Assembly: GCA_030697795.1 (NCBI GenBank)
Contig: JAUYOV010000007.1
Span: forward strand, 9,810-73,809
Source: a bacterium
Lineage (GTDB): Bacteria; Patescibacteriota; Minisyncoccia; JACQLN01
Reading direction: 5' to 3'
Length of the DNA stretch: 64,000 nucleotides
The notes under the pieces were generated by a model that did no database searches, was not told the origin of the DNA, and saw only the letters and a program-made list of their open reading frames with translations. Positions 1,792 through 54,473 of the stretch are shown here, one piece after another; positions within the stretch are counted from its first letter, which is position 1, and each line of letters begins with the position of its first letter. The translations under genes and the position numbers were made by a program.

Positions 1792-3573
1792 ATGCAATCT
1801 CAAATTAAACAGACTATAAGTGAAACTGTATCCAAGAAATTCGGCTTAAAAAATGTGCCGGATTTTTCAGTTGATATACCAGAAAAATCAGAACATGGCG
1901 ATTATGCTTCCAACATAGCCATGGTGTTAGCTCGAATATTAAAAAAGAATCCGTTGGAAATCGCCCATATAATTGATATGGAATTAGAGAAGTGGAATTT
2001 AAAAAATGGCTTAAAAACAGAAATTGCGTCGCCGGGTTTTATAAATTTCTTTATAGACACCAAGGGTTTGGGTTTGGTTTTAAAAGAAATAATTAAAAAG
2101 AAAGAAAAATTTGGCAGTGGTTTAAAAAAGAAAGAAACAATAATTATTGAATATTCTTCGCCTAATATTGCTAAACCCATGGGCGTGCATCATTTACGCA
2201 CAACCATAATCGGGCAATCTTTGGTTAATATGTATAACTTTTTGGGTTATAAAGTTTTAGCTATGAGCTTCCCTGGCGATTGGGGCACACAATTTGGTTC
2301 TTTAATAGCCGCTTATAAAAAGTGGGGTAATGCTAAAAAATTTAAAGTCTCGCCCGTTAAAGAAATGCTAAATCTCTATGTAAGATATAGCCATTTAGCT
2401 GAAAACGACGAAACATTGCAAGAAGAAGCTCGGCTGGAATTTAGAAAACTAGAACAAGGTAATAAAGAAAACCGAAGAATCTGGCATTTATTTAGAAAAG
2501 AATCTTTTAAAGATTTCGATAGAGTTTATAAAAAATTAGGCATTAAAATTCCTTTGGTTTTTGCCGAAAGTTTTTTCGAACCCTATTTAAAACAAGTTAT
2601 TGCAGACGCTTCTAATAAAAAAATTGCCGAACGTGGCGAAAACAACTCGCTGGTTGTTAAATTTAAAGACAATACTCCACCATTACTATTACAAAAATCC
2701 GACGGCGCCACACTTTATGCCACTCGAGACCTTGCCCAAATGAAATATCGGGTTCAAAAATGGCATCCTTCTAAAATAATTATTGTGGTGGCCAGCCAAC
2801 AAACGCTTTATTTTAACCAAGTTTTTAAAACCGCCGAAATGCTGGGTTATGCCAAAAAAGAAAATATGCAACATGTTAAATTTGGCATGGTTTTAGATTC
2901 CACTGGCAAAAAATTCGCCACGCGTGAAGGCAAGCTTATTCCCCTAGCCGATGTTTTAGACGAAGCAGTACGTCGAGCAAGAAAAGTTATAGATAAACTT
3001 AATCCTGAATCATTTCAAAAAGCAAAGCCCCGCACTGTCACACGACTTGTCCGCAGTAGCTTTAGCGGAGGCGGGAGCAAGTCTAGTGCTGGGGAAAAAG
3101 ATAAAATTGCCAAGATTGTTGGCCTAGGCGCAGTTAAATTCTTTGATCTTTCGCAAAATCGCTTAAGCGATATCGTTTTTGATTGGGACAAAATGCTAAA
3201 CCTCAAAGGCGCTTCGGCCCCATATATTCAATATTCTTATGCTCGGCTCAAAAGTATTTTAAGAAAAAATAAAAGTAAAATTATAAAATTTAATGTTGAG
3301 CTATTAAAAGAAAAAGAAGAAGTCTCTTTACTGCGCCACTTAATCCATTTTTCCGAAATCATAACCGACTCCGCCATTAAATACGAACCTAACCACCTAG
3401 CCGAGTATTTACTAAGACTAGCCGAGAAAGTAAACCATTTTTATGAAACTACGCCTATTCTTAAATCCGAAAAAGAAGTGCGTGCTTCAAGGTTGGCTTT
3501 AATAACAGCTGTGTGTAGTATTATAAAATCGGGTCTAGAACTTCTGGGCATAGAAGTGACGGAGAGGATGTGA
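1792..3573 (+). CDS. argS: arginine--tRNA ligase
   Basis: 593 aa. N-terminal Arg-tRNA synthetase domain, class I 'PMGVHHLRTTIIGQ' HIGH-like motif, and a C-terminal DALR anticodon-binding region. Confidence 0.9.
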   Translation: MQSQIKQTISETVSKKFGLKNVPDFSVDIPEKSEHGDYASNIAMVLARILKKNPLEIAHIIDMELEKWNLKNGLKTEIASPGFINFFIDTKGLGLVLKEIIKKKEKFGSGLKKKETIIIEYSSPNIAKPMGVHHLRTTIIGQSLVNMYNFLGYKVLAMSFPGDWGTQFGSLIAAYKKWGNAKKFKVSPVKEMLNLYVRYSHLAENDETLQEEARLEFRKLEQGNKENRRIWHLFRKESFKDFDRVYKKLGIKIPLVFAESFFEPYLKQVIADASNKKIAERGENNSLVVKFKDNTPPLLLQKSDGATLYATRDLAQMKYRVQKWHPSKIIIVVASQQTLYFNQVFKTAEMLGYAKKENMQHVKFGMVLDSTGKKFATREGKLIPLADVLDEAVRRARKVIDKLNPESFQKAKPRTVTRLVRSSFSGGGSKSSAGEKDKIAKIVGLGAVKFFDLSQNRLSDIVFDWDKMLNLKGASAPYIQYSYARLKSILRKNKSKIIKFNVELLKEKEEVSLLRHLIHFSEIITDSAIKYEPNHLAEYLLRLAEKVNHFYETTPILKSEKEVRASRLALITAVCSIIKSGLELLGIEVTERM

Positions 3574-3757: not shown

Positions 3758-4813
3758 ATGAACCCAATCGTTGAAGCCATCAAAAAAGTTAAGCCCGCGG
3801 TTGTTAGCATTGTTATCACCAAAGAAATTACCGAAGAAATGCTAAGCCAGATGCCTTACTTTGGCGAAGGTGGCGTATTAACTCCGCCAGAAAAAAATTC
3901 TGGGGAAATTAAAAAAGAAATTCCTAAAGACCACGAAAAAATAAAAGTGGGCGGCGGTTCGGGTTTTATAGTTTCCCGCGATGGCTTAGTTTTAACCAAT
4001 AAACACGTAGTCCAAGACCCCGAAGCTACCTATACTGTGGTAACCGAAGACGACTATCACTTCCCGGCCAAGGTTTTAGCCCGTGACCCCATAAACGACA
4101 TTGCTATTTTAAAAATAGAAAACAATAAAGAATTTCCTTACGTTAAACTAGCCGACGCCAATAAACTGGACCTAGGCGAAACTGTGGTAGCTATTGGTAA
4201 CACCTTAGGCGAATTTAAAAATACTGTTTCGGCTGGCGTGGTTTCGGGTTTATCCAGATTCATTACCGCTCAAAATGAATTTAACGGCGAACCCTCTTTT
4301 TTGCGTGGCTTGGTTCAAACCGACGCCGCTATTAACCCCGGCAATTCGGGCGGGCCTTTAATTAATATGCGGGGTGAAGCCATTGGCATAAACGTAGCCG
4401 TAATACTGGGCGCCCAAAATGTTGGCTTTGCCATCCCTATAAATTCTGCGGCCAGAGACTTAGAAGACTTAAAAAAGTTCGGCCGACTACGAAAACCATT
4501 CTTAGGCGTAAGATATTTAATTATAAACAAAGACATGAAAGATAAGTTGAAGTTGCCGGTTGAAGCCGGTGCTTATGTTATGAAAGAAAATGCGCCCGGC
4601 GATGAAGCCGTGGTAAAAAATAGCCCAGCCGACAAAGCTGGCTTAAAAGAAAAAGATATTATATTAGAATTTAACGGCGCCAAATTAACCAGCGAAAAAA
4701 ACTTGCAAGATGTTTTAGAAAACTGCAAAATCGGCGAAAGCGTGCCACTTAAAGTTTTGCGAAACGGCGGAGAATTAGAACTAAAATTGATGCTGGAAGA
4801 AAGAAAGTTTTAA
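3758..4813 (+). CDS. HtrA/DegP-family serine protease with C-terminal PDZ domain
   Basis: Catalytic triad context 'TNKHVV', 'DIAILKI', 'GNSGGPLIN'. PDZ-like C-terminus. Start placed at the ATG rather than the upstream TTG. No obvious signal peptide. Confidence 0.8.
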   Translation: MNPIVEAIKKVKPAVVSIVITKEITEEMLSQMPYFGEGGVLTPPEKNSGEIKKEIPKDHEKIKVGGGSGFIVSRDGLVLTNKHVVQDPEATYTVVTEDDYHFPAKVLARDPINDIAILKIENNKEFPYVKLADANKLDLGETVVAIGNTLGEFKNTVSAGVVSGLSRFITAQNEFNGEPSFLRGLVQTDAAINPGNSGGPLINMRGEAIGINVAVILGAQNVGFAIPINSAARDLEDLKKFGRLRKPFLGVRYLIINKDMKDKLKLPVEAGAYVMKENAPGDEAVVKNSPADKAGLKEKDIILEFNGAKLTSEKNLQDVLENCKIGESVPLKVLRNGGELELKLMLEERKF

Positions 4814-6050: not shown

Positions 6051-7700
6051 TTAATTTGTTTCGTTGGTATCAAAATGTTTTAAGGCGTAGGCCAAGCTAG
6101 AACCAATTTTTTTGCCAGGGTTAAAAATATTAGCCGGATCAAATATATTCTTTAAATCTTCGAATATTTTATAAACCTCGCTACCAAAAAATTGTTTTAA
6201 ATATGGCCCCCTTATTAAGCCATCGTTATGTTCGGCAGTAATAGAGCCATTAAACTTAAGTAATAAGTCGTAAACATGGCGGCTTATGCTAAGTATGGAA
6301 TCTTTGGTCTTGGGATCAGCTAAATCCATTAAAGGTATTATATGAAAATTGCCATCGCCCACATGCCCAGCTATGGTATAAATTATGGGGTAGCCATCTA
6401 AAATTTTATAAAGCTGAGGCAAAAATTCTGGCAAATGATCTGGGTTTACAATAATATCGTCTATAAAAGGTGCGGTACGTAGATTTTTTATCTTTTGGCG
6501 TAAAAAATTAAAACTCTCTCTTCTAATTACCCAATATTTTTCTGTATCATAGCCCGGCAAAGTTATTTTAGTATCTAACTTAAACCCCACCAAAGCCTTC
6601 TCAGCGGCTTTTGTTTTTTTATAGGCCATATCCGCGGTCTCGCTAGAAAACTCTGCCAATATAATCAACTTGGGCATACCCTTGGTAAAAATAAGCCAAA
6701 ATTCGTGCAAAAAATTAAAACCTAATCTAAATATATTGCCTTTTAACTTTTTAGCCAGATCCGGTAAAAGTTTAATAGCAATCTTAAAAGTATGATCGTC
6801 GTAAGATTCTAAACTTTCTGGTTTAAATTCTAAAAGCTTGTGCGTTATTTCAGCCAAACGCTTTAAATCCTTAAGAAATACCACCAATAACCGGCGGTTA
6901 TTTTTTGGCTTTATTAAGCCAAATTTAATTTCGGTTATAATTCCCAGCGTGCCTTGAGAACCCACCAAAACTTTAGTGAGATCAAAAACTTTTGTGCTTG
7001 GATTATAAACATCCCATAAATAATAGCCCGAAGAGTTTTTACTAACCTTAGGCTTAACCTGCTGTAGCGCCTCGTAATTATTCATTACCAGATCCGAAAC
7101 TTTTCTATATATTTCCCCTTCTAAATTTTCTAGATTTTTCTTGGCTTCTAACTGGTCTGCCGAAATAGGCCCGAAAGTATATTCCTGGCCATCTCGTAAA
7201 ATAATCTTTAATTCTTTTACATAATCTATGGTTTTCCCGTACGCTAACGTCTTCTCTCCACCAGCGTTATTTGAAACCATTCCGCCCACCGTGCAAATTT
7301 CACGCGAAGCTGGATAACTTGGTAAAAGCAAGCCCTTTTTTAAAGTCTCTTTTTCAAAATCTCTATAAAACAAGCCGGGTTCCACCACGGCATAATCGCT
7401 TCCGACTTCCTTTAATTTATTCATATGTTTAGAAACATCGGCTATTATGGATTCCGAAATTGCCCCGCCCGTCATATCGGTGCCGCCCGAACGCATAGTT
7501 ATAGATAAATTTGAGTCTTGCGACTTATTTTTGGACACAAACTTAACCAAATTTTTTAAATCATCAGTATCTTTAGGAAAAATAACAACTTTAGGTTTAA
7601 TTTTAAACAAACTAGCATCCCGACTATACTTTTCTAAGTCGGTTTCACTAGTTGTTATTTCTCCTTTAAAAAACTCCTTAATTTTTGAACCAATCTCCAT
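6051..7700 (-). CDS. FAD-binding oxidoreductase (PCMH-type, GlcD/D-lactate dehydrogenase-like)
   Basis: FAD_binding_4-like N-terminus ('MRSGGTDMTGG', 'TVGGMVSNNAGG') and FAD-oxidase C-terminal region. Confidence 0.7.
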   Translation of the reverse strand: MEIGSKIKEFFKGEITTSETDLEKYSRDASLFKIKPKVVIFPKDTDDLKNLVKFVSKNKSQDSNLSITMRSGGTDMTGGAISESIIADVSKHMNKLKEVGSDYAVVEPGLFYRDFEKETLKKGLLLPSYPASREICTVGGMVSNNAGGEKTLAYGKTIDYVKELKIILRDGQEYTFGPISADQLEAKKNLENLEGEIYRKVSDLVMNNYEALQQVKPKVSKNSSGYYLWDVYNPSTKVFDLTKVLVGSQGTLGIITEIKFGLIKPKNNRRLLVVFLKDLKRLAEITHKLLEFKPESLESYDDHTFKIAIKLLPDLAKKLKGNIFRLGFNFLHEFWLIFTKGMPKLIILAEFSSETADMAYKKTKAAEKALVGFKLDTKITLPGYDTEKYWVIRRESFNFLRQKIKNLRTAPFIDDIIVNPDHLPEFLPQLYKILDGYPIIYTIAGHVGDGNFHIIPLMDLADPKTKDSILSISRHVYDLLLKFNGSITAEHNDGLIRGPYLKQFFGSEVYKIFEDLKNIFDPANIFNPGKKIGSSLAYALKHFDTNETN

Positions 7701-12347: not shown

Positions 12348-12758
12348 TTATAATCTTGATTTTTGAAGATTTGAGTTTAGTATCAGAGAGTTAATTATTA
12401 TAGATTCTAGTTCAGGTGCGATTTTATTAACCTCACTCTTTTTTAATTCAAGTATTGATTTTCTTTTTTTGGGTTTAAAATTTTTGGTAATAGCTTTAAA
12501 ATCCCTGTGATGAGTAACAAAATTACTCATAAAATACTCTATAAAAATACCTTCAACTTCGTTCTTTTTATTCAAATAAAAAGCGAACTCATCGTTAAAG
12601 TATTTTTTATGAGAATTTTTAGACAAATCAGGAACTCTCATCGCGAAAGAGTCATTTTCTGCATCGTAATTTGAGATCCATTTTTGATCCCTTACAGTAT
12701 CAGAAAGATTATGGACAAAATTGAGTATATTCTTTTTTTCCTCTAAAGTTGTGGGCAT
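12348..12758 (-). CDS. DUF2283-like protein (putative antitoxin)
   Basis: 'YDAENDSFAMRV...EVEGIFIE' resembles DUF2283. Abuts the upstream small gene. Confidence 0.4.
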   Translation of the reverse strand: MPTTLEEKKNILNFVHNLSDTVRDQKWISNYDAENDSFAMRVPDLSKNSHKKYFNDEFAFYLNKKNEVEGIFIEYFMSNFVTHHRDFKAITKNFKPKKRKSILELKKSEVNKIAPELESIIINSLILNSNLQKSRL

Positions 12759-41244: not shown

Positions 41245-42168
41245 CTACTGCACTATCATTGTGCCACCGCTAGAACCCGCCGAAACCGTGCCATCAGAAA
41301 AATAAGTGACGAGAAGCCTATCATCTATATAAATTTCTAACGTTGGCCCAGAACTAGCGGGACTACGCACTATAGACATAATGGTATTAGTTGGATCTAG
41401 GTGATTAGAATACATAGTTATTCTCTGCTCTAGCCCGCCCGCATCAAAATCTCCCACGTAATGAAAAACAGTTCTACTGCCATTAAAGTGCGGTCCCATA
41501 ATAAAAACTTCGGTTTGCGACGGCTCGGTTAAAAACTTAAATTTAAGCTCTGAAGTGTTTTGAATACTCCAACCTAAATTAAATTCTTGATGACCTGTAT
41601 CAGCCACTTGCCCTTGGCCACCAGAGCCACCCCCGCCCGCGCTCCCGCCCGAAGTATAGGCATGATAAACTCTGCCAGAACCACTTACATAAATTGTTCT
41701 AGTGTAAGCAGGATCTTTAACGGACGATAATACAATAGTGCCCGGCGTAGTTGTACCGTTAAGATGGCTAAAAGAAATAACATCACCGCCATTATTAAGA
41801 TTTATACTCGTTATTTTTGTACCCGAGGGTAAATTAATAATCTTATTGCTTGAATTATTCGCATTGTAAATTAAACCCTTAAACAAAACTAAATTTGTAT
41901 CATTTAGTTTAACGCTATAGCCAGTTTCATCTTCTTTAACCAAAGAAGACAGGCGAGATTTTTCTAAAGTTAATTTTATTGTATCTGCTCCAGCAGACAA
42001 TCCGCCCGAAACTCTTAGCCCGCCCAAAGAAACAGCACCGCCAGCTAGTAGGATGCTGGTAATAGCTATAACCACAAGAAGTTCTACAAGAGTAAACCCC
42101 GCACAGAAAGACAGTGAAAGTTTCTTATCCTGTTGCGTTGAAATATTGTAGAGTTTTGACCATTTCAT
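41245..42168 (-). CDS. type IV pilin-like protein (307 aa)
   Basis: 'AGFTLVELLVVIAITSILLAGG' class III signal sequence. Confidence 0.7.
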   Translation of the reverse strand: MKWSKLYNISTQQDKKLSLSFCAGFTLVELLVVIAITSILLAGGAVSLGGLRVSGGLSAGADTIKLTLEKSRLSSLVKEDETGYSVKLNDTNLVLFKGLIYNANNSSNKIINLPSGTKITSINLNNGGDVISFSHLNGTTTPGTIVLSSVKDPAYTRTIYVSGSGRVYHAYTSGGSAGGGGSGGQGQVADTGHQEFNLGWSIQNTSELKFKFLTEPSQTEVFIMGPHFNGSRTVFHYVGDFDAGGLEQRITMYSNHLDPTNTIMSIVRSPASSGPTLEIYIDDRLLVTYFSDGTVSAGSSGGTMIVQ

Positions 42169-42249: not shown

Positions 42250-43497
42250 TTATAGTCCTGTGCCTATCGAATAAATTGGCTGAATTATAGATAAAGCAAA
42301 AATACCCACAGCTACGCCCATAAAAATCATAATTACGGGCTCAATAACCGAAGACATACTTTTAGTGGCTATAGCCACTTCGGATTCAAAAAAACGAGCT
42401 AGTTCCTTTAAAATATCGGCGAGCGAACCTGTTTCCTCGCCTACGGCAATCATTTCAGTTACTACCGGAGGAAAAAGATCGGGATATTTACCCAATAAAA
42501 AAGATAAGTTTTTACCTTTTTCTATTTCGGCTATTGTTTCGGCTACAGCTTTTTTATAAAAATAATTTGTTAAAGAATCGCTGGTAATACGAATAGCTTC
42601 CACCAAAGGAATTCCGCCTAAAAGCAGAGAGCTTAGCGTTCTGGAAAATCTAGCGGAATTTATTTTTTTAGTTATATCGGAAAAGATGGGCGTTTTTAGT
42701 AAAAATAAATTTACCGTCTTTTTGCCAAATTTAGTTTTCCTAAAAATAAAGTAAGATGCATAACTAACAAAAGCCAAAGAAAAAATAAATAAATACCAGT
42801 AGTTACTCATAAAATTAGATAGGCTAAATATTATTTGAGTGCTTAGAGGCAACGGCACGTTAAGTTCGGTAAAAGTATTAGCTAGTTGGGGCAAAACAAA
42901 TGTCATCATTACCACTCCCACGCCCAGCATGGCCAGCACTATTATAATTGGATAAACCAAAGCCCCCTGTATCTTCTTTTTTATCATATGTTCGCGGCGC
43001 AAATGTCTCATAACCAGTTTTAAGGTGCTTTCCAGCTTGCCCGAAGCCTCGCCCACTTTGGCCATACTCACAAAAAGATCGGGAAAAACGTTGGGATGAC
43101 GAGAAATAGCTTGGCTAAAAGATTCACCCGAAGCTACGCGGGCGCTTATATTTTTAAGCACCTCTGAAAAATATTTATTCTTTGTTTGCCGAGACAAAGT
43201 ATCTAAGGCCTTATTAAGAGAAAAGCCAGCTCGTATCATTAAGCCCAAATGGCGAGCAAAAATAACTTTTTCTTGCAAACTAACATATTTAAACAGAGAT
43301 TCTAGGGAATTAAAAACGTCTTTTTTTAAAATTGAAACAGGCTCGGGCGCCGAACCCATAGCACCTTTTTCTTTGGCAAAAACTAAAAACAAACCCTCGT
43401 CTCTTAAAGCGCGAGCTAAAGCTATTTGGCTATCGGCCATTTTAACGCCTTCAATTTTTTTGCCGTCTTTAGAAATGGCTTTATACTCATACTCCAT
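42250..43497 (-). CDS. pilC: type IV pilus/T2SS platform protein PilC (GspF family)
   Basis: 415 aa with two T2SSF repeats and three TM regions. Confidence 0.85.
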   Translation of the reverse strand: MEYEYKAISKDGKKIEGVKMADSQIALARALRDEGLFLVFAKEKGAMGSAPEPVSILKKDVFNSLESLFKYVSLQEKVIFARHLGLMIRAGFSLNKALDTLSRQTKNKYFSEVLKNISARVASGESFSQAISRHPNVFPDLFVSMAKVGEASGKLESTLKLVMRHLRREHMIKKKIQGALVYPIIIVLAMLGVGVVMMTFVLPQLANTFTELNVPLPLSTQIIFSLSNFMSNYWYLFIFSLAFVSYASYFIFRKTKFGKKTVNLFLLKTPIFSDITKKINSARFSRTLSSLLLGGIPLVEAIRITSDSLTNYFYKKAVAETIAEIEKGKNLSFLLGKYPDLFPPVVTEMIAVGEETGSLADILKELARFFESEVAIATKSMSSVIEPVIMIFMGVAVGIFALSIIQPIYSIGTGL

Positions 43498-43499
43498 TT

Positions 43500-44378
43500 T
43501 TATATTATATCACGAGCGTTATTTATTGATATTACCAATTTCTTAACTTTTTCCTCAAGCAAAGAACCTGAACAATGTTTGAGCATACCAAGATAAGAAG
43601 CTAGGTTTTTTGCATCAACTTTTCTAAACATTCTCCTTTTTGTTTTAGTCCTTAAAACTCTATGATTCGGCAAAACTACATAACCCAGAAAATCTATGCC
43701 TTGAGCATACTTTCTGATAATAACCTTATTCGGATGCAAACATAAGACTAATTTGCTAACCAGAAAGTTATTTATCTTTTTGGACAATTCAATTAAATAA
43801 TCCGCTTGTTCACTTAAAATGACAAAATCATCACAATAACGAATATAATACTTTTCTTTTAATTTGTGCTTAATAAACTGGTCTAATTCGTTAAGGTAAA
43901 TATTGGCAAATAACTGGCTGGTTACATTGCCTAAGGGCAAGGCTTTATCTTTATCTTTTTCAAAGCTTTTGATGATTCTCTCGACTAACCACATAGCATT
44001 TTCGTCTTTGATTTTTATTTGAATCAATTTAGTTAAGATATTTTGGTCTATGGAATCAAAGAATTTTTTAATGTCGCATTTTAAAGCGAATACATTTCGG
44101 CTATTGTTTTTACTTAATTGTTTATAGAAAGTTTCTAACCTTGTTACAGCTATATGAGTTCCTTTACCAACTCTACACGAATAAGAATCATATATAAAAT
44201 GTTTATCAAATATTGGATACAAAATTCTAAAGATAGCTTGATGTAAAACCCTGTCCAGAACACAGGCTTTGTGTATATGTCTTAGTTTGGGATCGGTAAC
44301 ATAAAAAGGAATATACTCGCTATGTTTGTATGTTTTGTTTTTTAATTCAAAATTAAGTTGAAACAAGTTGTCTTCCAA
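43500..44378 (-). CDS. diversity-generating retroelement reverse transcriptase
   Basis: RT motifs, including 'LGNVTSQ' (the [I/L]GxxxSQ motif recalled as distinguishing DGR RTs from retron/group II QGxxxSP) and 'RYCDDFVI'. A TR/VR pair lies immediately upstream. Stop codon is 2 bp from the pilC start. Confidence 0.8.
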   Translation of the reverse strand: MEDNLFQLNFELKNKTYKHSEYIPFYVTDPKLRHIHKACVLDRVLHQAIFRILYPIFDKHFIYDSYSCRVGKGTHIAVTRLETFYKQLSKNNSRNVFALKCDIKKFFDSIDQNILTKLIQIKIKDENAMWLVERIIKSFEKDKDKALPLGNVTSQLFANIYLNELDQFIKHKLKEKYYIRYCDDFVILSEQADYLIELSKKINNFLVSKLVLCLHPNKVIIRKYAQGIDFLGYVVLPNHRVLRTKTKRRMFRKVDAKNLASYLGMLKHCSGSLLEEKVKKLVISINNARDII

Positions 44379-44530
44379 GTTAAACTCAAATTCCTGAACA
44401 TCCAGCCGTTTTCTTTTGCCTTTTTTAAATTCGCGCCAAGCTAAAAATAGATTTTCTAAGGAAATAACTTTATCAAAAACATTATGGAAAACTTTCCCAC
44501 TAAAGCCCCCCCGACAGCGTCAATGCGAAT

Positions 44531-44866
44531 TTGGTTCATAGGATTACTGAATTTTATAAGCAAATCTATCTTTTATCCAGCAAGATAAGCAAAAGAGACA
44601 AATTCGGTATTTGGTTAAAGATAGAAAATTCCTGTTTAGAAACATTGTATCTAATAATCAAAGCCTCTTTTGCCCACAAATCAACCAAACTGCCTCCGCT
44701 AAATTCAGCCAGAATAGAAATAGAAGTTTTAAAAAGACTTTTAAGAATTACCCATGAACTTTTAATAATTCAAGATAAAACATACTTAAAACTAGAATCC
44801 GATTTACAGGAAATATCCAAAATGACTAATGGCTGGATCAAATATGAAACACAAAAGGAGCAGTGA
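44531..44866 (+). CDS. possible Avd-like four-helix-bundle accessory protein (TTG start)
   Basis: 111-aa helical ORF between RT and TR. C-terminal 'QEISKMTNGWIK' resembles the conserved end of the Avd/TIGR02436 family. Its orientation is opposite to RT and TR sense, which is atypical. Confidence 0.35.
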   Translation: MVHRITEFYKQIYLLSSKISKRDKFGIWLKIENSCLETLYLIIKASFAHKSTKLPPLNSARIEIEVLKRLLRITHELLIIQDKTYLKLESDLQEISKMTNGWIKYETQKEQ

Positions 44867-44889
44867 TGCTCCCTTTTTAGTGCGGAAAC

Positions 44890-45016
44890 TTCTCACGAGA
44901 ACGGAGACTGCTATTGGAGTTGTCGGGATTGTAGTTACTAACGTTGACCTTGCTATTGTGCCTGTTCCAGTTGACGTTCGGCACATTACCATCGGCATTA
45001 CGCGAACCCGTTTTTT
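44890..45016 (-). repeat. DGR template repeat (TR)
   Basis: 120-bp ungapped core 44892-45011 aligns to 45297-45416 with 20 mismatches. At 18 of them the minus-strand base here is A. Flanking positions continue the pattern. Confidence 0.75.
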
Positions 45017-45207
45017 GCCTAATCTCATCCATTATCACCAATAACCTTTTACAAAGTTATCTGCGTCAGCCGCGAACACACGCGGATTTTTTTATGAAGC
45101 ATCCGCCAAAAATAGCGAAACCTTCTCTAAAACTAGGCAAGCAGTTTCCTTTTTGTTGGCAAACCGCTATCTCACCATGGGCGAGACCGATTGTATTAGC
45201 CAAAATA

Positions 45208-45239
45208 ATTTTATCACAAAAAGAAAACCCGCCAGCTTT
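45208..45239 (-). terminator. hairpin CCCGCCAGC-TTT-GCTGGCGGG + T-run downstream of the DGR target gene/VR
   Basis: Perfect 9-bp GC-rich stem about 55 nt beyond the VR end. Consistent with the hairpin commonly found after a DGR VR. Confidence 0.55.
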
Positions 45240-45284
45240 GCTGGCGGGGGAAAAGGGTACAAGATAAAAATTACAAGGGAAAAA

Positions 45285-46016
45285 TCAGGAAACTACCTCA
45301 CGAGAACGGAGACTGCTATAGGAGTAGCCGGGATAATAGTAACTAACGCAGACCTTGCTATAGTGCCTGCTCCAGAAGACGAACGGCACACCCCCACCGG
45401 CAACACGCGAACCCGTACAGGACGTGGTGTTGTTCCTATCCATATGCTCTTTGGTTTCGCTCCAGTATTTGAAGCCATGTAGCTTGCGCTCCCGAAGGGT
45501 TTCGGTTTTGAGACCCTTCTCCTTGATCTGGTTAGCCGAAAGGTTTTTGAGTTCCTCATCGGCTTCCACCCGGTCGCGCACCCAGATGGCGTAATGGCCA
45601 TTGTTGGAATTCCGTTCTTCCTTGTCCCAATCAATAGCCACATCCAGATTGTCGTAGTAGCGCCAGCACTTGAAGTGCTTATCGCAGACTTCGTAGATTT
45701 GGTTGAGGGTGAGGCCTTGGGCTACCACGATGAGGCGGTCAAAACCGACCTGCTTTTCGGGAATGCGAACCTGCGAGAAGTCCAGTTCCAAACTGAAAAA
45801 CTTACGGTAGAAGTTCTGCCAGTCGGTGAACGGGACGATATTCGGCATCGCCGGGAAAAGACCAACGATCCCTTCGGCCTTGCCAGATTTGGCATTGGCC
45901 ACTTCGGCGGCCATTTCGGGCGAGAATCCTTTCTTGCCCAAAGTTATCAGCATTTCACCGACTAGTCCATGAGAAAAATCCGAGGGCTTGTAGATACGGC
46001 TCGCGACTTCCGACAT
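45285..46016 (-). CDS. DGR target protein (variable C-terminus)
   Basis: 243 aa with GGAGG RBS. VR occupies roughly the last 45 codons ('...TGSRVAGGGVPFVFWSRHYSKVCVSYYYPGYSYSSLRSRE'). GC-rich. Confidence 0.7.
   Translation of the reverse strand: MSEVASRIYKPSDFSHGLVGEMLITLGKKGFSPEMAAEVANAKSGKAEGIVGLFPAMPNIVPFTDWQNFYRKFFSLELDFSQVRIPEKQVGFDRLIVVAQGLTLNQIYEVCDKHFKCWRYYDNLDVAIDWDKEERNSNNGHYAIWVRDRVEADEELKNLSANQIKEKGLKTETLRERKLHGFKYWSETKEHMDRNNTTSCTGSRVAGGGVPFVFWSRHYSKVCVSYYYPGYSYSSLRSREVVS
45295..45421 (-). repeat. DGR variable repeat (VR)
   Basis: Counterpart of the TR; mismatches fall at TR adenines. Confidence 0.75.
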
Positions 46017-46337
46017 CGCACACCTCCATCTAATTAAGTTAAGAAGTACTATTCCTCCTTCGCTACGACGTTATGTCATAGCTACGGAAGGACAAGTTAG
46101 GCTCTATTTGAGCTTAATAGCATATTAACATCTTATACGGTTTTTAGTCAAGTTTGACTACACTTACACTGTTTGCTAGACTTACTTCACAAGTGCCTTC
46201 GGGCTCGCCCTGCAAAGGGCAAACAGAGAAAAACCATCAAAACATATCTTTGATGGTTTTTCTTATACTCTCAAATACTTTTTTAGTATCTACCAAGCTA
46301 AAACTCGGATAAGTAGGTTACCCCAAATATGTCTAAA

Positions 46338-46577
46338 TTATACAGAAACAAAAGTTTTAGCTGTAGTTTTATTTAAAACCAAATCTTTCATCGTAATTTT
46401 CTCAACTCCTTTCTTACCTAATTTTTCTTTTACCCCCAAGATTTCTAAATATAATGGTTTTGATTTTGAATCCACATCTAAAAGTATCTCCGGAGCGATC
46501 TCGAGAGTCTTTTTTACTTTACCCTCTTTAAAGGTGATGCTTAAAGCATCGGCATAAGAATCATAAACTATTTTCAT
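46338..46577 (-). CDS. DUF2283-like protein (putative antitoxin)
   Basis: 'MKIVYDSYADALSITF...' pattern. Confidence 0.5.
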   Translation of the reverse strand: MKIVYDSYADALSITFKEGKVKKTLEIAPEILLDVDSKSKPLYLEILGVKEKLGKKGVEKITMKDLVLNKTTAKTFVSV

Positions 46578-46578
46578 T

Positions 46579-46803
46579 TTATATCTTACTAACCCAATGT
46601 TGAGTAATTACAACGATAATTTTATTATTATTATTTACAAATATAACCTTTAAATAAAGATTGCGAAATTTTTTAAATGCAATCATTTTCCCTCCGTTAG
46701 TTGGCAAAATCTTATCAGGATTCTTAAGAGTCTTTACAACCAAACCCCTAGCTATACTTCTTTGTTTCAACTTTAAGATTGCGTGCTTGGTGAAGCTTAT
46801 CAT
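46579..46803 (-). CDS. DUF4258-like protein (putative toxin)
   Basis: 'MISFTKHAILKLKQRSI...' pattern; abuts its partner. Confidence 0.5.
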   Translation of the reverse strand: MISFTKHAILKLKQRSIARGLVVKTLKNPDKILPTNGGKMIAFKKFRNLYLKVIFVNNNNKIIVVITQHWVSKI

Positions 46804-46824
46804 ACCAACAATTTGTTGACAATT

Positions 46825-48588
46825 TTATTCCCTCGAAGCCCTCAAAACTTCTTCTATACTCGTAATGCCTTGAACGGCTTTTATAAAACCATCTTCTAGC
46901 ATAGTTATCATACCTTCTTCTTCGGCTACTTTTTGAATATCATCTGATGTGGCCGAAGCCACAATAAGTTCTTTAATTTTTGGCGTAATATCTAAAACTT
47001 CAAAAATTCCCACCCGACCCTTATACCCATTGGGCGAATTTTCTGTTTCTTTCGGCCTATAAAAACTTATTGATTCCCATGTGTCTTTTGGCCCGATAAT
47101 TTTTTCGTCTTTAAGTGTTTTTAAAACTTTATCCAAATTTATTTCTTTACCCAGCGCTTCTATTTCTTTTTTTGTAAGATTATATTTGGTCCTGCTATCC
47201 CCCGATAAACATCTAACCAACCTCTGCCCCACAATAGCTGTTAGCGTAGACGAAATAAGAAACGGCTCTACTTTCATATCTATTAAGCGCGGGATAGCGC
47301 CGGCGGCAGAATTTGTGTGCAAAGTAGAAACAACTAAATGACCAGTTAAGGAAGCGTTAATAGCGAGCGCCGCCGTTTCACTGTCGCGGATTTCCCCCAC
47401 CATAATTATATCTGGATCCTGCCTAACCAAAGTGCGTAAACCCTGCGCAAAAGAAAAACCAATATCCGGTTTAACCTGTGTTTGATTAACGCGCGGTATA
47501 CGATATTCTATCGGATCCTCTACTGTAGAAATATTAACTTCGGGCGTATTTAAAATATCTAAAACTGTATAAAGCGACGTGGTTTTGCCCGAACCGGTGG
47601 GACCGGTTGATAAAATTAAACCAGTTGGACGCTTAATGGCGCGATGCAAGATTTCTAGGGCCTTACCCCGATAGCCCAAACTTTCCAAAGTAAAACCTTG
47701 AGAATCTTCTTTTAAAAGACGCATCACAATTTTTTCGCCGTCATAAACCGGTAAAATAGAAACACGAAAAGAAACTTTAAAACCCTTCCCTTCTATTTTA
47801 AAACGGCCGTCTTGAGGCAACCTATGTTCGTCTAATTTTAAATTAGAGAGGACTTTGATGCGCGCCACAATACCATCGTGCACCGCTTGAGGCAGTGTCA
47901 TTACATCTTTTAAAATTCCATCAATGCGATACCTCACCACTACATCTTTTTCTTCGGGTTCTATATGTATATCGGAAGCGCTTTCCAAAATAGCGTGCCG
48001 AATTAAAGTATCAACGATTTTAACCACGGGCAATTCTTCGGCCACGCGTTGTAATTCGGCGTCCGATTTTATTTTGCCATCTTTAGAAGCCAAGCCCACA
48101 ACCTTAAGTACAGCGGAAGATTCACTTTTTATAATATTGTTAAATTCGTCTTCTAAACTACGCTGATACTGCCTTAAAACAGCTTCTAGCGACTGGCGTG
48201 AAGTTAACCTAGGTAAAATATTAAGACTGGCTTTTTTCTTTATAAAATCTATAGTTTGTAAATCGTTAGGATCCAGCATAGCTACCTCAAGATCAGTGCC
48301 TGTCTGGCGAAATGCCACAATATTACTGTTGCGGGCGATTGGTTCTGGAATTATTTTTAAAATTTCCGAATCAACTTTTTGTTGGGTTAGATCCACAAAA
48401 GGAATGCCTAAAACATAAGCTTTGGCTTTGGCTATCATCTCTTCGGAAACAAAATTACGACGAATTAAAACCTCATCTAACCTGCGGCCAGTTTCTTTTT
48501 GATCGGTTTCGGCTAGTTCTAAATTTTTGGCCGAAACTAAATTTGAATCAACTAAAAATCTTTTAAATTTTTCCAAGTCCAACGTCAT
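46825..48588 (-). CDS. pilB: type IV pilus assembly ATPase PilB (GspE family)
   Basis: Walker A 'GPTGSGKTTSLY', Asp/His boxes, N-terminal GSPII domains. Confidence 0.9.
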   Translation of the reverse strand: MTLDLEKFKRFLVDSNLVSAKNLELAETDQKETGRRLDEVLIRRNFVSEEMIAKAKAYVLGIPFVDLTQQKVDSEILKIIPEPIARNSNIVAFRQTGTDLEVAMLDPNDLQTIDFIKKKASLNILPRLTSRQSLEAVLRQYQRSLEDEFNNIIKSESSAVLKVVGLASKDGKIKSDAELQRVAEELPVVKIVDTLIRHAILESASDIHIEPEEKDVVVRYRIDGILKDVMTLPQAVHDGIVARIKVLSNLKLDEHRLPQDGRFKIEGKGFKVSFRVSILPVYDGEKIVMRLLKEDSQGFTLESLGYRGKALEILHRAIKRPTGLILSTGPTGSGKTTSLYTVLDILNTPEVNISTVEDPIEYRIPRVNQTQVKPDIGFSFAQGLRTLVRQDPDIIMVGEIRDSETAALAINASLTGHLVVSTLHTNSAAGAIPRLIDMKVEPFLISSTLTAIVGQRLVRCLSGDSRTKYNLTKKEIEALGKEINLDKVLKTLKDEKIIGPKDTWESISFYRPKETENSPNGYKGRVGIFEVLDITPKIKELIVASATSDDIQKVAEEEGMITMLEDGFIKAVQGITSIEEVLRASRE

Positions 48589-48756: not shown

Positions 48757-48862
48757 CCCGCCTAAATTTTATCGGGGTGTCGTATACTGGCAGTACGTCT
48801 GCTTTGGGAGCAGATAGACTGGGTTCGATTCCCAGCACCCCGACTGATCAAATTTAGGCGGG
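48757..48862. repeat. perfect 13-bp inverted repeat (CCCGCCTAAATTT / AAATTTAGGCGGG) bracketing tRNA-Pro
   Basis: Arms at 48757-48769 and 48850-48862, each 3-6 nt from the tRNA ends. Confidence 0.8.
48773..48843 (+). tRNA. tRNA-Pro (anticodon UGG)
   Basis: Acceptor CGGGGTG/CACCCCG, anticodon loop TTTGGGA, T-arm CTGGG-TTCGATT-CCCAG, discriminator A. Short D-arm. No encoded CCA. Confidence 0.7.
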
Positions 48863-48865
48863 TGA

Positions 48866-48906
48866 AGGAGCAGGTAGTCCGAGTTCGATTCTCGGCTCTC
48901 CGACCA
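48866..48906 (+). other. orphan tRNA 3' fragment (T-arm CCGAG-TTCGATT-CTCGG, acceptor 3' strand CTCTCCG, A, CCA)
   Basis: T-stem/loop and a 3' acceptor strand ending ACCA, with no matching 5' half or D/anticodon arms nearby. Confidence 0.5.
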
Positions 48907-48912
48907 AGTCAA

Positions 48913-48948
48913 ACTTGGCGCAGCCTAGTATGACTTGGCGCAGCCTAG
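48913..48948. repeat. two tandem 16-bp direct repeats ACTTGGCGCAGCCTAG (period 20)
   Basis: Exact copies at 48913-48928 and 48933-48948, followed by a GCCTCG/CGAGGC hairpin. Confidence 0.8.
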
Positions 48949-48982
48949 GTTGACGCAGGCCTCGTTTGACGAGGCAATAATC

Positions 48983-49234
48983 ATGTATTACGTGTACGCG
49001 TTAAAAAGCCAGAAAGATCTAAACCTCTATATTGGATTCACAACCGATTTAAAAGAAAGAATGGAAAGACATAAAAACGGAGAGGTTTTGTCTACTAAAC
49101 ACAGAAGACTATTAAAATTGATTTTTTATGAAGCTTTCATAAATAAACATGATGCACTAGCGAGAGAAAAATATTTAAAAAGCGGTTATGGGAAAGAGCA
49201 GTTACAAAGCATTTTAAAAAACATACTAACATAG
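48983..49234 (+). CDS. GIY-YIG nuclease-family protein (YhbQ/UPF0213-like)
   Basis: 'YYVYALKS...LYIGFTTDLKERMERHKNG...EKYLKSGYGKEQ' GIY-YIG core. Start set at the ATG at 48983. Confidence 0.65.
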   Translation: MYYVYALKSQKDLNLYIGFTTDLKERMERHKNGEVLSTKHRRLLKLIFYEAFINKHDALAREKYLKSGYGKEQLQSILKNILT

Positions 49235-49305
49235 GCGGGTATCGTATAGTGGTAATACCACAGCTTTCCAAGCTGTTGCTAGGGGTTCGATTCCCCTTAC
49301 CCGCT
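49235..49305 (+). tRNA. tRNA-Gly (anticodon UCC)
   Basis: Acceptor GCGGGTA/TACCCGC, D-stem GTAT/ATAC, anticodon stem ACAGC/GCTGT with loop TTTCCAA, T-arm AGGGG-TTCGATT-CCCCT. Confidence 0.8.
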
Positions 49306-49474
49306 CTAAATGAAAATAATCCCAATTCTCATTGGGGTTATTTTTGTTTATTGAATGGATTTGGGGAATCGAAGGGTATTTTAAAAAGTGAACTGCTTCA
49401 CTTTTTAAAAACCCGGGCTCCGAGGGAACTTGCGAGCCTGAAACGCAGTTTCGTGCGAGCAAGTGGAAGAGGAG

Positions 49475-52910: not shown

Positions 52911-54473
52911 ATGAAACCAGTAGTACTAGTAATTTTAGACGGCTATGGCGTGGGCGAAAAAAGTAAGGGAAACGCTATAAGCCAAGCCAATAAGCCTAAT
53001 TTAGATTTTATAGAAAAAAACTACCCATCTGTTTTGCTCCAAGCTTCGGGCGTGCCCGTAGGCCTGCCGTGGGGCGAAGCGGGCAATTCCGAAGTTGGCC
53101 ATACCGCTATGGGTACGGGCCAAGTTTGGCAACAACCCCTAACCCGAATAACTTTAGCTATTCAAAATGGCAGTTTCTTCCAAAACCCTGTTTTAAAAAA
53201 AGCTGCCGATCACGCTAAAAATAATAATTCGGTTTGGCATTTAATTGGACTGGTTGGCTCGGGCTCGGTGCATTCTTATATAGATCATCTTTACGCTCTG
53301 GTGGAAATGGCCAAAAACGAGAATGTAAAAGAAATCTGGCTACACCTTTCCACCGATGGCCAAGACAGCCCACCTAAAGAATCTGCCACCTTGATTCAAA
53401 ATTTAATTGAAAGGTTAAACTGGCTTGGTAAAGGAAAAATCGCAAGTTGTATCGGCAGGTTTTATAGTATGGACCGCGATAACCATTGGGATAGAATCGA
53501 AAAAGCTTATCGTTTAATAGTAGAAGATCAAGGTGAAAAAACTAAAGATTTTATCGCGTCTATAAAAAATCAATATGCTAAAAATATAAACGATAACTAT
53601 ATGGAGCCAATGGTTTTGGTTAACGAAAAAGACGAACCCCAAGGCACTGTCCGAGATGGCGATGTTGTTATATTTTTTAATTTTAGAGAAGACAGAGCCC
53701 GCCAACTGGCAAAAGCTATGGCGGTTTCTAGTTTTAAAGAATTCCCCCGCCCAGAACTAAAAAATATTTTTTACGCCACGCTGACTCAATATGAAAAAGA
53801 CTTACCGGCTGAAGTCATATTTCCTCCGCTTGAATTAAAATATACCCTCTCGCAAATACTTTCAGAAAATGGCAAAAAGCAGTTCAAAATTGCCGAAACA
53901 GAAAAATACGCTCACGTTACTTATTTTTTTAACGGCGGGCGCGAAACAGCTTTTCCCGGCGAAGAAAGGCAACTTATAAAATCCGCGGCGGCGGTACACT
54001 TTAACGATGTGCCGGAAATGAAAGCTTTTGAAATAGCCGAGGGCTTAGCCTCTGCTATAAAATTAGGAAAATATGATTTTATACTGGGGAATTTTGCTAA
54101 CGCCGATATGGTGGGCCACACTGGCGATTTACCCGCCACCATAAAAGCCGTTGGAGCGCTTGATTTGGCGGTAAAAAAAGTAATGGACGTGGTTTTAGAA
54201 GTAGATGGAACTTTAATAATAACCGCAGACCACGGCAACGCCGAACTTAAAATAAATACCTTAAGTGGCGAAATAAATACCGAGCATACCATAAACCCCG
54301 TGCCTTTTTATTTAGTTACGAATAATCTTAAAAAACCGCAGGGTGATAAGAATAAAAATCAGGTTGGTGGAATTTTGCAGGACGTCGCCGCCACAGTGCT
54401 AGACTTAATGCAGATAGCTCCACCTAACGATATGGATGGGAGAAGTCTTCTACCAACTCTCTATGAAGAATAG
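52911..54473 (+). CDS. gpmI: 2,3-bisphosphoglycerate-independent phosphoglycerate mutase
   Basis: 520 aa. 'VLVILDGYGVG' N-terminus and the metalloenzyme/iPGM domain pattern. Confidence 0.9.
   Translation: MKPVVLVILDGYGVGEKSKGNAISQANKPNLDFIEKNYPSVLLQASGVPVGLPWGEAGNSEVGHTAMGTGQVWQQPLTRITLAIQNGSFFQNPVLKKAADHAKNNNSVWHLIGLVGSGSVHSYIDHLYALVEMAKNENVKEIWLHLSTDGQDSPPKESATLIQNLIERLNWLGKGKIASCIGRFYSMDRDNHWDRIEKAYRLIVEDQGEKTKDFIASIKNQYAKNINDNYMEPMVLVNEKDEPQGTVRDGDVVIFFNFREDRARQLAKAMAVSSFKEFPRPELKNIFYATLTQYEKDLPAEVIFPPLELKYTLSQILSENGKKQFKIAETEKYAHVTYFFNGGRETAFPGEERQLIKSAAAVHFNDVPEMKAFEIAEGLASAIKLGKYDFILGNFANADMVGHTGDLPATIKAVGALDLAVKKVMDVVLEVDGTLIITADHGNAELKINTLSGEINTEHTINPVPFYLVTNNLKKPQGDKNKNQVGGILQDVAATVLDLMQIAPPNDMDGRSLLPTLYEE

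Follow-up and report, generated by a model that had tools for sequence, protein, structure and literature searches.

A two-module insertion between pilB and pilC of a Patescibacteria genome, and the poly-G tract at the start of its retroelement reverse transcriptase

Why should pilB and pilC, two genes of the type IV pilus that ordinarily follow one another closely, be held apart in one genome by a system that produces a hypervariable protein? The case arises in a 64,000-nt stretch (hereafter the window, or 64-kb window, to whose positions all coordinates refer) of contig JAUYOV010000007.1, from an ultra-small bacterium of the Patescibacteria, or candidate phyla radiation (CPR). Here, pilB and pilC are separated by 3327 nt (43498-46824) that hold a DUF4258/DUF2283 gene pair and a complete diversity-generating retroelement (DGR). 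By the established mechanism of such elements, the RNA of a template region (TR) would be reverse-transcribed with errors at adenines, and the resulting cDNA would replace the variable region (VR) of a target gene. The original prediction, made from the sequence of the window, saw in this segment an insertion of about 3.3 kb that combined the DGR with a toxin-antitoxin (TA) pair, and proposed either that it links hypervariable protein production to pilus or surface functions, or that it is derived from a phage.

The answer that we consider probable is that two independent modules were inserted in the pilB-pilC spacer of a Paceibacteria-like CPR pilus operon, that the pilus is incidental to both, and that the reverse transcriptase (RT) of the DGR is gated by a poly-G tract. 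The first module would be the putative TA pair, probably read together with pilB and ending at a hairpin. The second would be a compact and self-contained DGR of the CPR lineage, made up of a promoter, a Shine-Dalgarno (SD) sequence, the target with its VR, a GC-rich hairpin, the TR, a further hairpin, an oppositely oriented avd and the RT. The pilus site would then most likely be a permissive landing place, and not a sign of functional coupling.

The segment between pilB and pilC

Relatives of pilB were collected by a scan that kept one genome per species, which gave 80 loci, all of them from Patescibacteria and mostly with Paceibacteria-type names, and homologues of the window genes were placed in these loci by tblastn (L-numbers are labels for fetched related loci and P-numbers for homologous proteins). 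The two genes are at most 156 nt apart in 60 of the 74 related loci with pilC downstream of pilB, which bears out their description as normally adjacent. They are also contiguous in the closest relatives of the window, namely L007 (pilB 86% and pilC 74% identical, gap 38 nt) and L006 (79% and 63% identical, gap 105 nt), both of which keep the pilin-pilM-pilN order that follows pilC in the window, and this conserved synteny agrees with the predicted insertion. In the alignment, the DNA homology of the window with both relatives ends at the pilB stop and restarts at the pilC ATG. Since the closest relatives and the 60 loci lack the insert, and since the homology breaks exactly at these two codons, the segment is a lineage-specific insertion. 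The repeat analysis shows neither a flanking repeat nor a target-site duplication around it.

On the minus strand, the genes follow the order pilB, DUF4258, DUF2283, 321 nt of non-coding DNA, the target, a non-coding stretch that bears the TR, bAvd (on the plus strand), the RT and pilC (Table 1). Farther downstream of pilC lie three pilin-like genes, an open reading frame (ORF) of 149 aa, pilM and pilN, and the pilin at 41245-42168 has an N_methyl domain (Pfam). The presence of both a DGR and a putative TA pair in these 3327 nt is confirmed by the Pfam matches and the TR/VR pair. The junctions are tight, as the DUF4258 gene begins 21 nt past the pilB stop and, as had been noticed earlier, only 2 nt separate the RT stop (TAA, 43502-43500) from the pilC ATG (43497-43495).

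The division into two modules follows from a comparison with other cassettes of the same family, for which 36 homologues of the target were aligned and 80 metagenome loci were fetched. The DUF4258/DUF2283 pair is absent beside every other cassette of the family in these 80 loci, and the blastn matches between the window and other cassettes cover only the part from 46040 down to about 43590. Since the pair never occurs with other cassettes and the DNA homology ends at 46040, the TA pair with its 300-nt spacer is, by this comparison, a module separate from the DGR, and the single unit of DGR and TA that had been envisaged finds no support. The two genes of the pair are co-oriented and adjacent, 1 nt apart, and both match their families above the curated cut-offs; their layout corresponds to that of a type II TA system, as predicted from the families. 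The DUF4258 protein has no NCBIfam or PHROG match, and its family is listed as a BECR toxin of unknown activity without an experimental reference (PMC11980606).

The DGR shows the marks of adenine-specific mutagenesis. Specifically, TR and VR differ at 20 of 120 nt, and 18 of these differences concern adenines of the TR (11 A>T and 7 A>G), so that 18 of the 35 adenines of the TR are altered in the VR. All 18 adenine changes hit codon positions 1 or 2, and the two remaining mismatches are synonymous and at third codon positions. Replacement of the VR would thereby recode about 13 AAY-derived codons in a C-terminal ligand-binding surface of the target. Neither a second TR copy nor a second target for the TR occurs in the 64-kb window. 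The target has 582 homologues, all from Patescibacteria where the source is named, and the family alignment consists of a conserved core followed by a hypervariable C-terminus. Among the 85 target-homologue loci, at least 30 share the order target (+), TR, Avd (-), RT (+) with similar spacing, and a few lack avd; wherever avd is present in a homologous cassette, it lies on the strand opposite to TR and RT. The avd gene of the window also matches the PHROG family 'Avd protein of DGR' (4e-15) and NCBIfam DivGenRetAVD (6e-14; 52 bits, below the cut-off of 80).

A close homologue of the target (77% identical in aa; 82% in nt, including 180 nt past the stop; about 10001-10702 in L001) occurs in L001-L003 and L086 without TR, Avd or RT, with a tyrosine recombinase next after it on the other strand; this homologue may be a target that has been orphaned or relocated.

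The poly-G tract at the start of the reverse transcriptase

Motif 4, [ILV]GxxxSQ, defines the RTs of DGRs, and the RT of the window carries it. The ORF as listed, however, starts from a TTG at 44378, which would drop a conserved N-terminal motif (..VFHNVFDKVISLENLFLAWREF..), and the NCBI annotation of the gene (P0121) gives 292 aa only, from the TTG. Farther upstream, the RT frame is open as far as about 44510 and contains neither an ATG nor a GTG or TTG before codon 45. The frame that begins at the authentic ATG (44539-44537) reads MNQIRIDAVGG and is +1 to that of the RT domain, and the two frames meet at a run of seven G (G7), which is the sole G or C run of at least 7 nt in the window. One added G restores the frame and yields an RT of 346 aa with an N-terminus that matches the homologues; the 337 RT codons beyond the tract are intact. 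A GGG motif stands N-terminal to the conserved RT motif in 78 of the 119 closest homologues, many of which read M-x-Q...GGG and others MGGG, and this shared N-terminus confirms that of the repaired 346-aa form. On the evidence of the reading frames, the listed ORF from the TTG is a frameshift artefact. As assembled, the RT is not an intact and translatable gene: across the G7, its authentic ATG lies one base off the RT frame, and translation of the RT from it would not be expected.

The tract is not peculiar to the window. Among 33 related cassettes with DNA sequence, 27 have a tract of G7-G11 at the 5′ site of the RT, and the range across the family is 7-12 G. The site occurs in the window and in L004, L091, L093, L099, L102, L103, L112, L113, L117, L119, L120, L128, L132, L134, L136-L138, L148, L151, L153-L155, L159, L160 and L166-L177. 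A pure G run has been kept in about 23 divergent lineages, and GGG accounts for only 18% of Gly codons in the RT bodies. Counted from the upstream ATG, the RT is in frame in 5 cases and out of frame in 21, with both wrong frames represented; in each of the 6 cassettes (of 33) that lack a tract, the ATG is in frame. By our own tally, about 36 of the 44 G or C runs of at least 8 nt in 2.1 Mb of fetched loci are the RT tract.

The length of the tract differs between sequences that are otherwise almost the same. L112 has G8 and L113 has G9 at 99.1% identity over 6.3 kb, and L136 (G8) and L155 (G9) are 99.3% identical. More specifically, a Wildermuthbacteria lineage is represented by 12 contigs from different samples (L166-L177; in L166, target at about 923-1606 and RT at about 2366-3436), which share at least 99.5% identity over 3.3-5.9 kb. 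Their tracts are G9 (6 contigs), G10 (4) and G11 (1), and one is interrupted by a scaffold gap. In three of the contigs, tract length is the sole difference from the reference; the other differences, 15-19 per contig, lie nearly all in the VR, and the A and T runs of 7 nt are constant among the contigs. The in-frame (G9) contigs have more distinct VRs than those with G10 or G11, in a comparison of 5 versus 5 contigs that is too small for a test. All tract-length evidence is taken at the DNA level only. Short RT proteins in 90% clusters had been considered as alleles in the OFF state and were dropped, because gene callers set different starts on identical DNA (L166 is 100% identical to L176, yet the RT is called with 311 aa in one and 356 aa in the other), which makes 'truncated alleles' at the protein level unusable as evidence.

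Because tract length varies between near-identical sequences, in which the other differences are mostly in the VR, the tract is read here as a hypermutable contingency tract. Conservation and length polymorphism of the tract are direct observations, while its function as a reversible switch is what we infer from them. The resulting proposal, to which we give even chances, is that a conserved poly-G tract gates the DGR RT in a large Patescibacteria lineage: slipped-strand changes in the tract would switch RT synthesis, and hence hypermutation, on and off, so that the RT would be silent and the VR frozen in most populations, with diversification in a minority. In this genome, the copy in the pilus operon would be in the OFF state, with a VR that points to past activity. 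As in contingency loci, the homopolymer lies near the 5′ end of the gene, and among relatives its length is polymorphic. Transcriptional slippage is a possible alternative to switching by length change. A role of the poly-G run as a surrogate for an SD sequence was rejected, as no in-frame start follows the tract, and a directional programmed ribosomal frameshift is unlikely, given that both wrong frames occur among the lineages. A poly-G tract at the start of DGR RTs is not mentioned in two large DGR surveys (PMC5758913, PMC8144416), nor was one found by full-text literature searches, and the family-wide tract of CPR DGR RTs is apparently undescribed so far.

The alternative that survives best is that the frameshift reflects gene decay or a sequencing error, that the G run encodes a Gly-Gly-Gly linker without a regulatory role, and that the length differences are assembly noise. 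Several observations weigh against our reading at this point. Differences in tract length between assemblies could partly be homopolymer assembly errors, and one scaffold (L173) indeed breaks, with an N-gap, at the tract; the polymorphism is known from assemblies of relatives and not from the window's own population; and no tract in the family is shorter than G7, for which reason the copy in the window could simply be a decaying RT. The two synonymous non-adenine changes in the VR suggest drift since the last homing, and the different start calls on identical DNA remove protein-level alleles from the evidence. In the L045 lineage, moreover, the tract lies upstream of the RT ATG, outside the ORF, and therefore frame switching cannot be its only role. 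Decay or error is nevertheless unlikely: all RT codons beyond the tract have stayed intact, a pure G run persists across divergent lineages in which GGG is a minor Gly codon, the 7-nt A and T homopolymers of the same contigs do not vary, several tract lengths coexist in a single lineage that otherwise differs almost only in the VR, and the cassettes without a tract have their ATG in frame.

Transcription signals, composition and the pilus context

The features of the segment are collected in Table 1, in which the significance of hairpins is expressed by comparing folding energies with those of shuffled sequences (z-scores).

Table 1. Features in and around the pilB-pilC segment, listed in minus-strand order, with GC content and the basis of each assignment.
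Feature	Position	Strand	GC	Basis or remark
pilB, type IV pilus assembly ATPase, left flank of insertion	46825-48588	-	39%	Pfam T2SSE 1.4e-118 and MshEN
DUF4258 protein, 74 aa, putative RelE/ParE-superfamily (BECR fold) toxin	46579-46803	-	30% (TA pair)	Pfam PF14076, 28.8 bits, cut-off 25
DUF2283 protein, 79 aa, putative antitoxin	46338-46577	-	30% (TA pair)	Pfam PF10049, 44 bits, cut-off 23
Perfect 15-16 bp hairpin after TA pair	46227-46263	-		inverted repeat; -19.9 kcal/mol, z = -4.8, 0/200 shuffles fold as well
Sigma-70-like target promoter: TTGACT, 18-nt spacer, TG before TAATAT	46122-46151	-		promoter scan, consensus match only
DGR target gene, 243 aa	45285-46016	-	52%	ORF, family alignment
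Variable region (VR), last ~40 target codons	45297-45416	-		83% identical to TR
GC-rich 9-bp hairpin and U-run	45228-45248	-		terminator scan; -21.3 kcal/mol, z = -3.2
Template region (TR), 120 nt, AAY-codon rich	44892-45011	-	44% (TR region)	direct repeat of VR
10-bp hairpin, then UUUUGUGUUU	44853-44876	-		directly after TR, abuts avd stop on other strand; z = -2.5
bAvd accessory protein, 111 aa, TTG start	44531-44866	+	31%	Pfam bAvd 2e-14, 54.4 bits, cut-off 40
DGR RT	43500-44539	-	31%	Pfam RVT_1 (43500-44378) 3e-21; motifs LGNVTSQ, YCDD
G7 homopolymer (C7 on + strand), RT codons ~10-12	44506-44512	-		27 nt after ATG; frames meet here
Extended -10 box TGaTATAAT	43504-43512	-		in last RT codons (CGT GAT ATA ATA TAA), ends 6 nt before pilC ATG
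pilC, pilus platform protein, right flank of insertion	42250-43497	-	37%	Pfam T2SSF 4e-64
Whole window			37%	

The hairpin after the TA pair is likely, by its position and predicted stability, the end of a transcript that covers pilB and the pair. The GC-rich hairpin at 45228-45248 lies 37-57 nt past the target stop and 49-69 nt past the end of the VR (45297), and would be an intrinsic terminator, the hairpin that typically flanks the VR at DGR target sites, or both. Hairpins related to the one after the TR are also found in cassettes without avd, likewise after the TR (L128, L151, L131). Two starts within the cassette interlock, as the avd TTG (44531, +) and the RT ATG (44539, -) overlap head to head by 9 nt, and therefore the promoter of each gene must lie within the other gene. 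Among RT homologues, P0131, P0134 and P0164 are fused to a domain of the uracil-DNA glycosylase superfamily (PF03167).

The tight RT-pilC junction had been taken as a sign that RT and pilC are probably co-transcribed. Since a perfect -10 box ends 6 nt before the pilC ATG and three stable hairpins lie between pilB and pilC, an independent start of pilC appears at least as likely; co-transcription is possible but not needed. The box is absent in the relatives L006 and L007. A similar arrangement is seen elsewhere in the window: pilB has a perfect TATAAT 9 nt upstream of its ATG, further perfect TATAAT boxes occur at the genes 6051-7700 and 52911-54473, and a -10-like box 4-11 nt before the start is present in 10 of 45 window genes (22%, against a background of 6.5%), which suggests that leaderless transcripts may be frequent in the window. 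Most window genes also have no SD sequence. Thus pilC would have its own start, probably leaderless, and its expression would probably be sustained by a -10 box made of the last codons of the cassette.

The inserted genes had further been described as GC-richer than the pilus genes and equipped with strong SDs. As to composition, this is correct for the target and the TR region, whereas the TA pair, Avd and RT lie below pilB and pilC; as to SDs, it is correct for the target only, with GGAGGTG at 46021-46027, 11 nt upstream of its start, as the only strong SD in the neighbourhood, and not for the other inserted genes. Nor does the compositional shift serve as a sign of foreign origin. In all of 49 homologous loci the target exceeds its flanks in GC content (median +10 points), and in these 49 loci the RT is AT-richer than the flanks, with a mean GC of 31% against 40%. 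Because the pattern occurs in all 49 loci, the shift is a property of the cassette family and not in itself a mark of recent transfer.

The spacer between pilB and pilC has received other genes in other genomes. In the remaining 14 of the 74 loci, the gap ranges from 279 nt to 7.4 kb and contains inserts, and two of these 14 loci carry a second pilus gene set. The genes found in such spacers, named from their ORF sequences only, are ORF6N-like, a TA-like pair, DUF559 with a glyoxalase-like gene, NYN, Fic and RecG. Inserts are rarer at other junctions of the same loci (1 of about 20 for pilC-pilin and 0 of 8 for pilM-pilN). Since 14 of 74 loci have inserts between pilB and pilC and fewer occur at the other two junctions, this spacer looks like a recurrent, permissive landing site for accessory genes in Paceibacteria.

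Accessory genes in the spacer were noted in L023, L024, L033, L037, L045, L072, L075 and L078, and include some GC-rich ORFs of no recognised kind. DGR targets were suspected in the GC-rich ORFs that L045 and L024 carry between pilB and pilC, an idea that was rejected: BLASTP and hhalign gave no significant similarity to the family or to the L045 target, and the 3′ end of the gap ORF in L045 does not match the L045 TR. A promoter-like repeat of 51 nt (TTGACA, 17-nt spacer, TATAAT; 86% identical) is found in L045 at 4031-4081 and 12438-12488, where it precedes the DGR target and the unrelated GC-rich gap ORF, and is the only link between the two. Just upstream of pilB in the window, an ORF with a GIY-YIG domain (48935-49234, +) lies between tRNA-Pro and tRNA-Gly (region 48773-49306), and GIY-YIG homologues near pilB also occur in L013, L059, L064 and L080.

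Could the diversified protein nonetheless work with the type IV pilus, as an adhesin, a receptor-binding protein or a regulatory partner that is co-expressed with pilB and pilC? The cassette does lie inside the operon, with junctions of 21 nt and 2 nt. Elsewhere, a contig of 1.5 kb (L096) has a target of the family (322-1038) directly upstream of pilC (about 1188 onward) at a distance of 150 nt and with no RT between them, DGR RTs are found less than 10 kb from pilB in L045 and L025, and in L157 pilB and pilC lie 7 kb from the cassette; the cassette may have a weak preference for pilus loci. From the literature, a preprint describes DGRs of Bacteroides that diversify pilus adhesins (bioRxiv 10.1101/2024.11.15.621889), and two papers describe a need of CPR bacteria for type IV pili in host attachment (PMC12206443, PMC9894109). 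Coupling is nevertheless improbable. The insert is missing from both closest relatives and from most related loci, and cassettes of the same family occur in more than 30 unrelated, non-pilus contexts, with neighbours such as FtsJ and an M50 protease, tRNA synthetases and TatD, HU and RNase Y, or an integrase. The target protein has no Pfam domain, signal peptide, transmembrane segment or class III prepilin motif by sequence and Pfam analysis, and its N-terminus (MSEVASRIYKPSDFSHG...) is hydrophilic and without an N_methyl domain by Pfam; the same lack of such features has been reported for CPR targets (Roux et al., PMC8144416). It also has its own promoter-like site and terminator hairpins. 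The predicted link of the hypervariable protein to pilus or surface function therefore finds no support. The AlphaFold model of the target has a pLDDT of 87.6, and when a C-type lectin fold was sought the best Foldseek E-value was 0.2, by which this fold is not demonstrated; this, too, is a point against our reading.

The weakest alternative, that a remnant of a phage or other integrating element brought the DGR and the TA pair together, can draw on the facts that DGRs were first found in phages, that TA pairs and DGRs are common mobile-element cargo, that at least 10 related genomes have mobile-type genes in the pilB-pilC spacer (Fic, NYN, ORF6N-like, DUF559 and TA-like, by their ORF-sequence names) and that a tyrosine recombinase stands beside the RT-less target in L001-L003, but it is highly doubtful, as the earlier suggestion of a phage-derived insertion must be, because no integrase, recombinase, phage (including structural) or conjugation gene occurs in or beside 43498-46824, the insert has no terminal repeat or target-site duplication, its only PHROG matches are Avd and RT, 2.9 million IMG/VR contigs contain no relative of the target, cassettes elsewhere never come with the TA pair and CPR DGRs are reported to be cellular (PMC8144416).

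Significance and comparison with known systems

Taken alone, the position in the pilus locus is of little consequence, being an insertion of known element types in one lineage. It does illustrate a way in which a compact genome may preserve the function of an operon after insertion, by means of a new -10 box at the junction. The poly-G tract is the more consequential point. To our knowledge, no regulatory mechanism has been established for CPR DGRs, and the field still asks by what means cells contain the cost of DGR hypermutation. If the proposal is true, a heritable stochastic switch of the RT would (i) explain why many metagenomic DGRs look inactive and (ii) affect automated annotation, in which such RTs would be called truncated or with arbitrary starts.

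Compared with the prototype, the DGR of Bordetella phage BPP-1 (mtd-avd-TR-brt), the element of the window has the same adenine-specific substitutions between TR and VR at codon positions 1 and 2, a VR at the 3′ end of the target, an Avd, an RT with [ILV]GxxxSQ and YxDD, and a GC-rich hairpin past the VR. It differs in being chromosomal in a CPR bacterium and not part of a phage, in the position of avd on the opposite strand, between TR and RT, where it overlaps the RT start head to head, in a small target of 243 aa without a recognisable domain or a demonstrated C-type lectin fold, and in the frame-breaking poly-G tract at the 5′ end of the RT.

A DGR lineage of the CPR, or Patescibacteria, was reportedly recognised by Paul et al. 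in 2017, and the element described here is a typical member of it. This lineage corresponds to the 'CPR set' of Wu et al. 2018 (PMC5758913) and to clade 2 of Roux et al. 2021 (PMC8144416). Shared properties are the cellular location in groundwater-type Patescibacteria, the compact cassette, targets without transmembrane segments or known domains, and VR diversification between samples, as seen in the related Wildermuthbacteria contigs. By contrast, only the genome of the window has the cassette between pilB and pilC, and the conserved, hypervariable poly-G tract at the RT start is absent from the lineage as described in these two surveys. The DGRs of Bacteroides type V pilus adhesins (bioRxiv 10.1101/2024.11.15.621889) also lie inside a pilus gene cluster; their VR is in the pilus tip or adhesin, whereas the target of the window has no pilin features and its cassette family is mostly found away from pilus genes.

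The closest parallel to the tract itself is found in contingency loci, such as the poly-G tract of Neisseria pgtA (PMC2193922), the poly-G genes of Campylobacter and the homopolymer tracts of Mycobacterium tuberculosis (PMC10334774). In both cases an ORF has a run of 7-12 G close to its 5′ end, with length differences of 1-3 nt among sequences that otherwise agree, and each change moves the downstream ORF into or out of frame. In contrast to these loci, such tracts are otherwise almost absent from the host, an AT-rich CPR bacterium, and the gene for which reversible switching is proposed is itself a mutator, the DGR RT, and not a surface structure or a modification enzyme.

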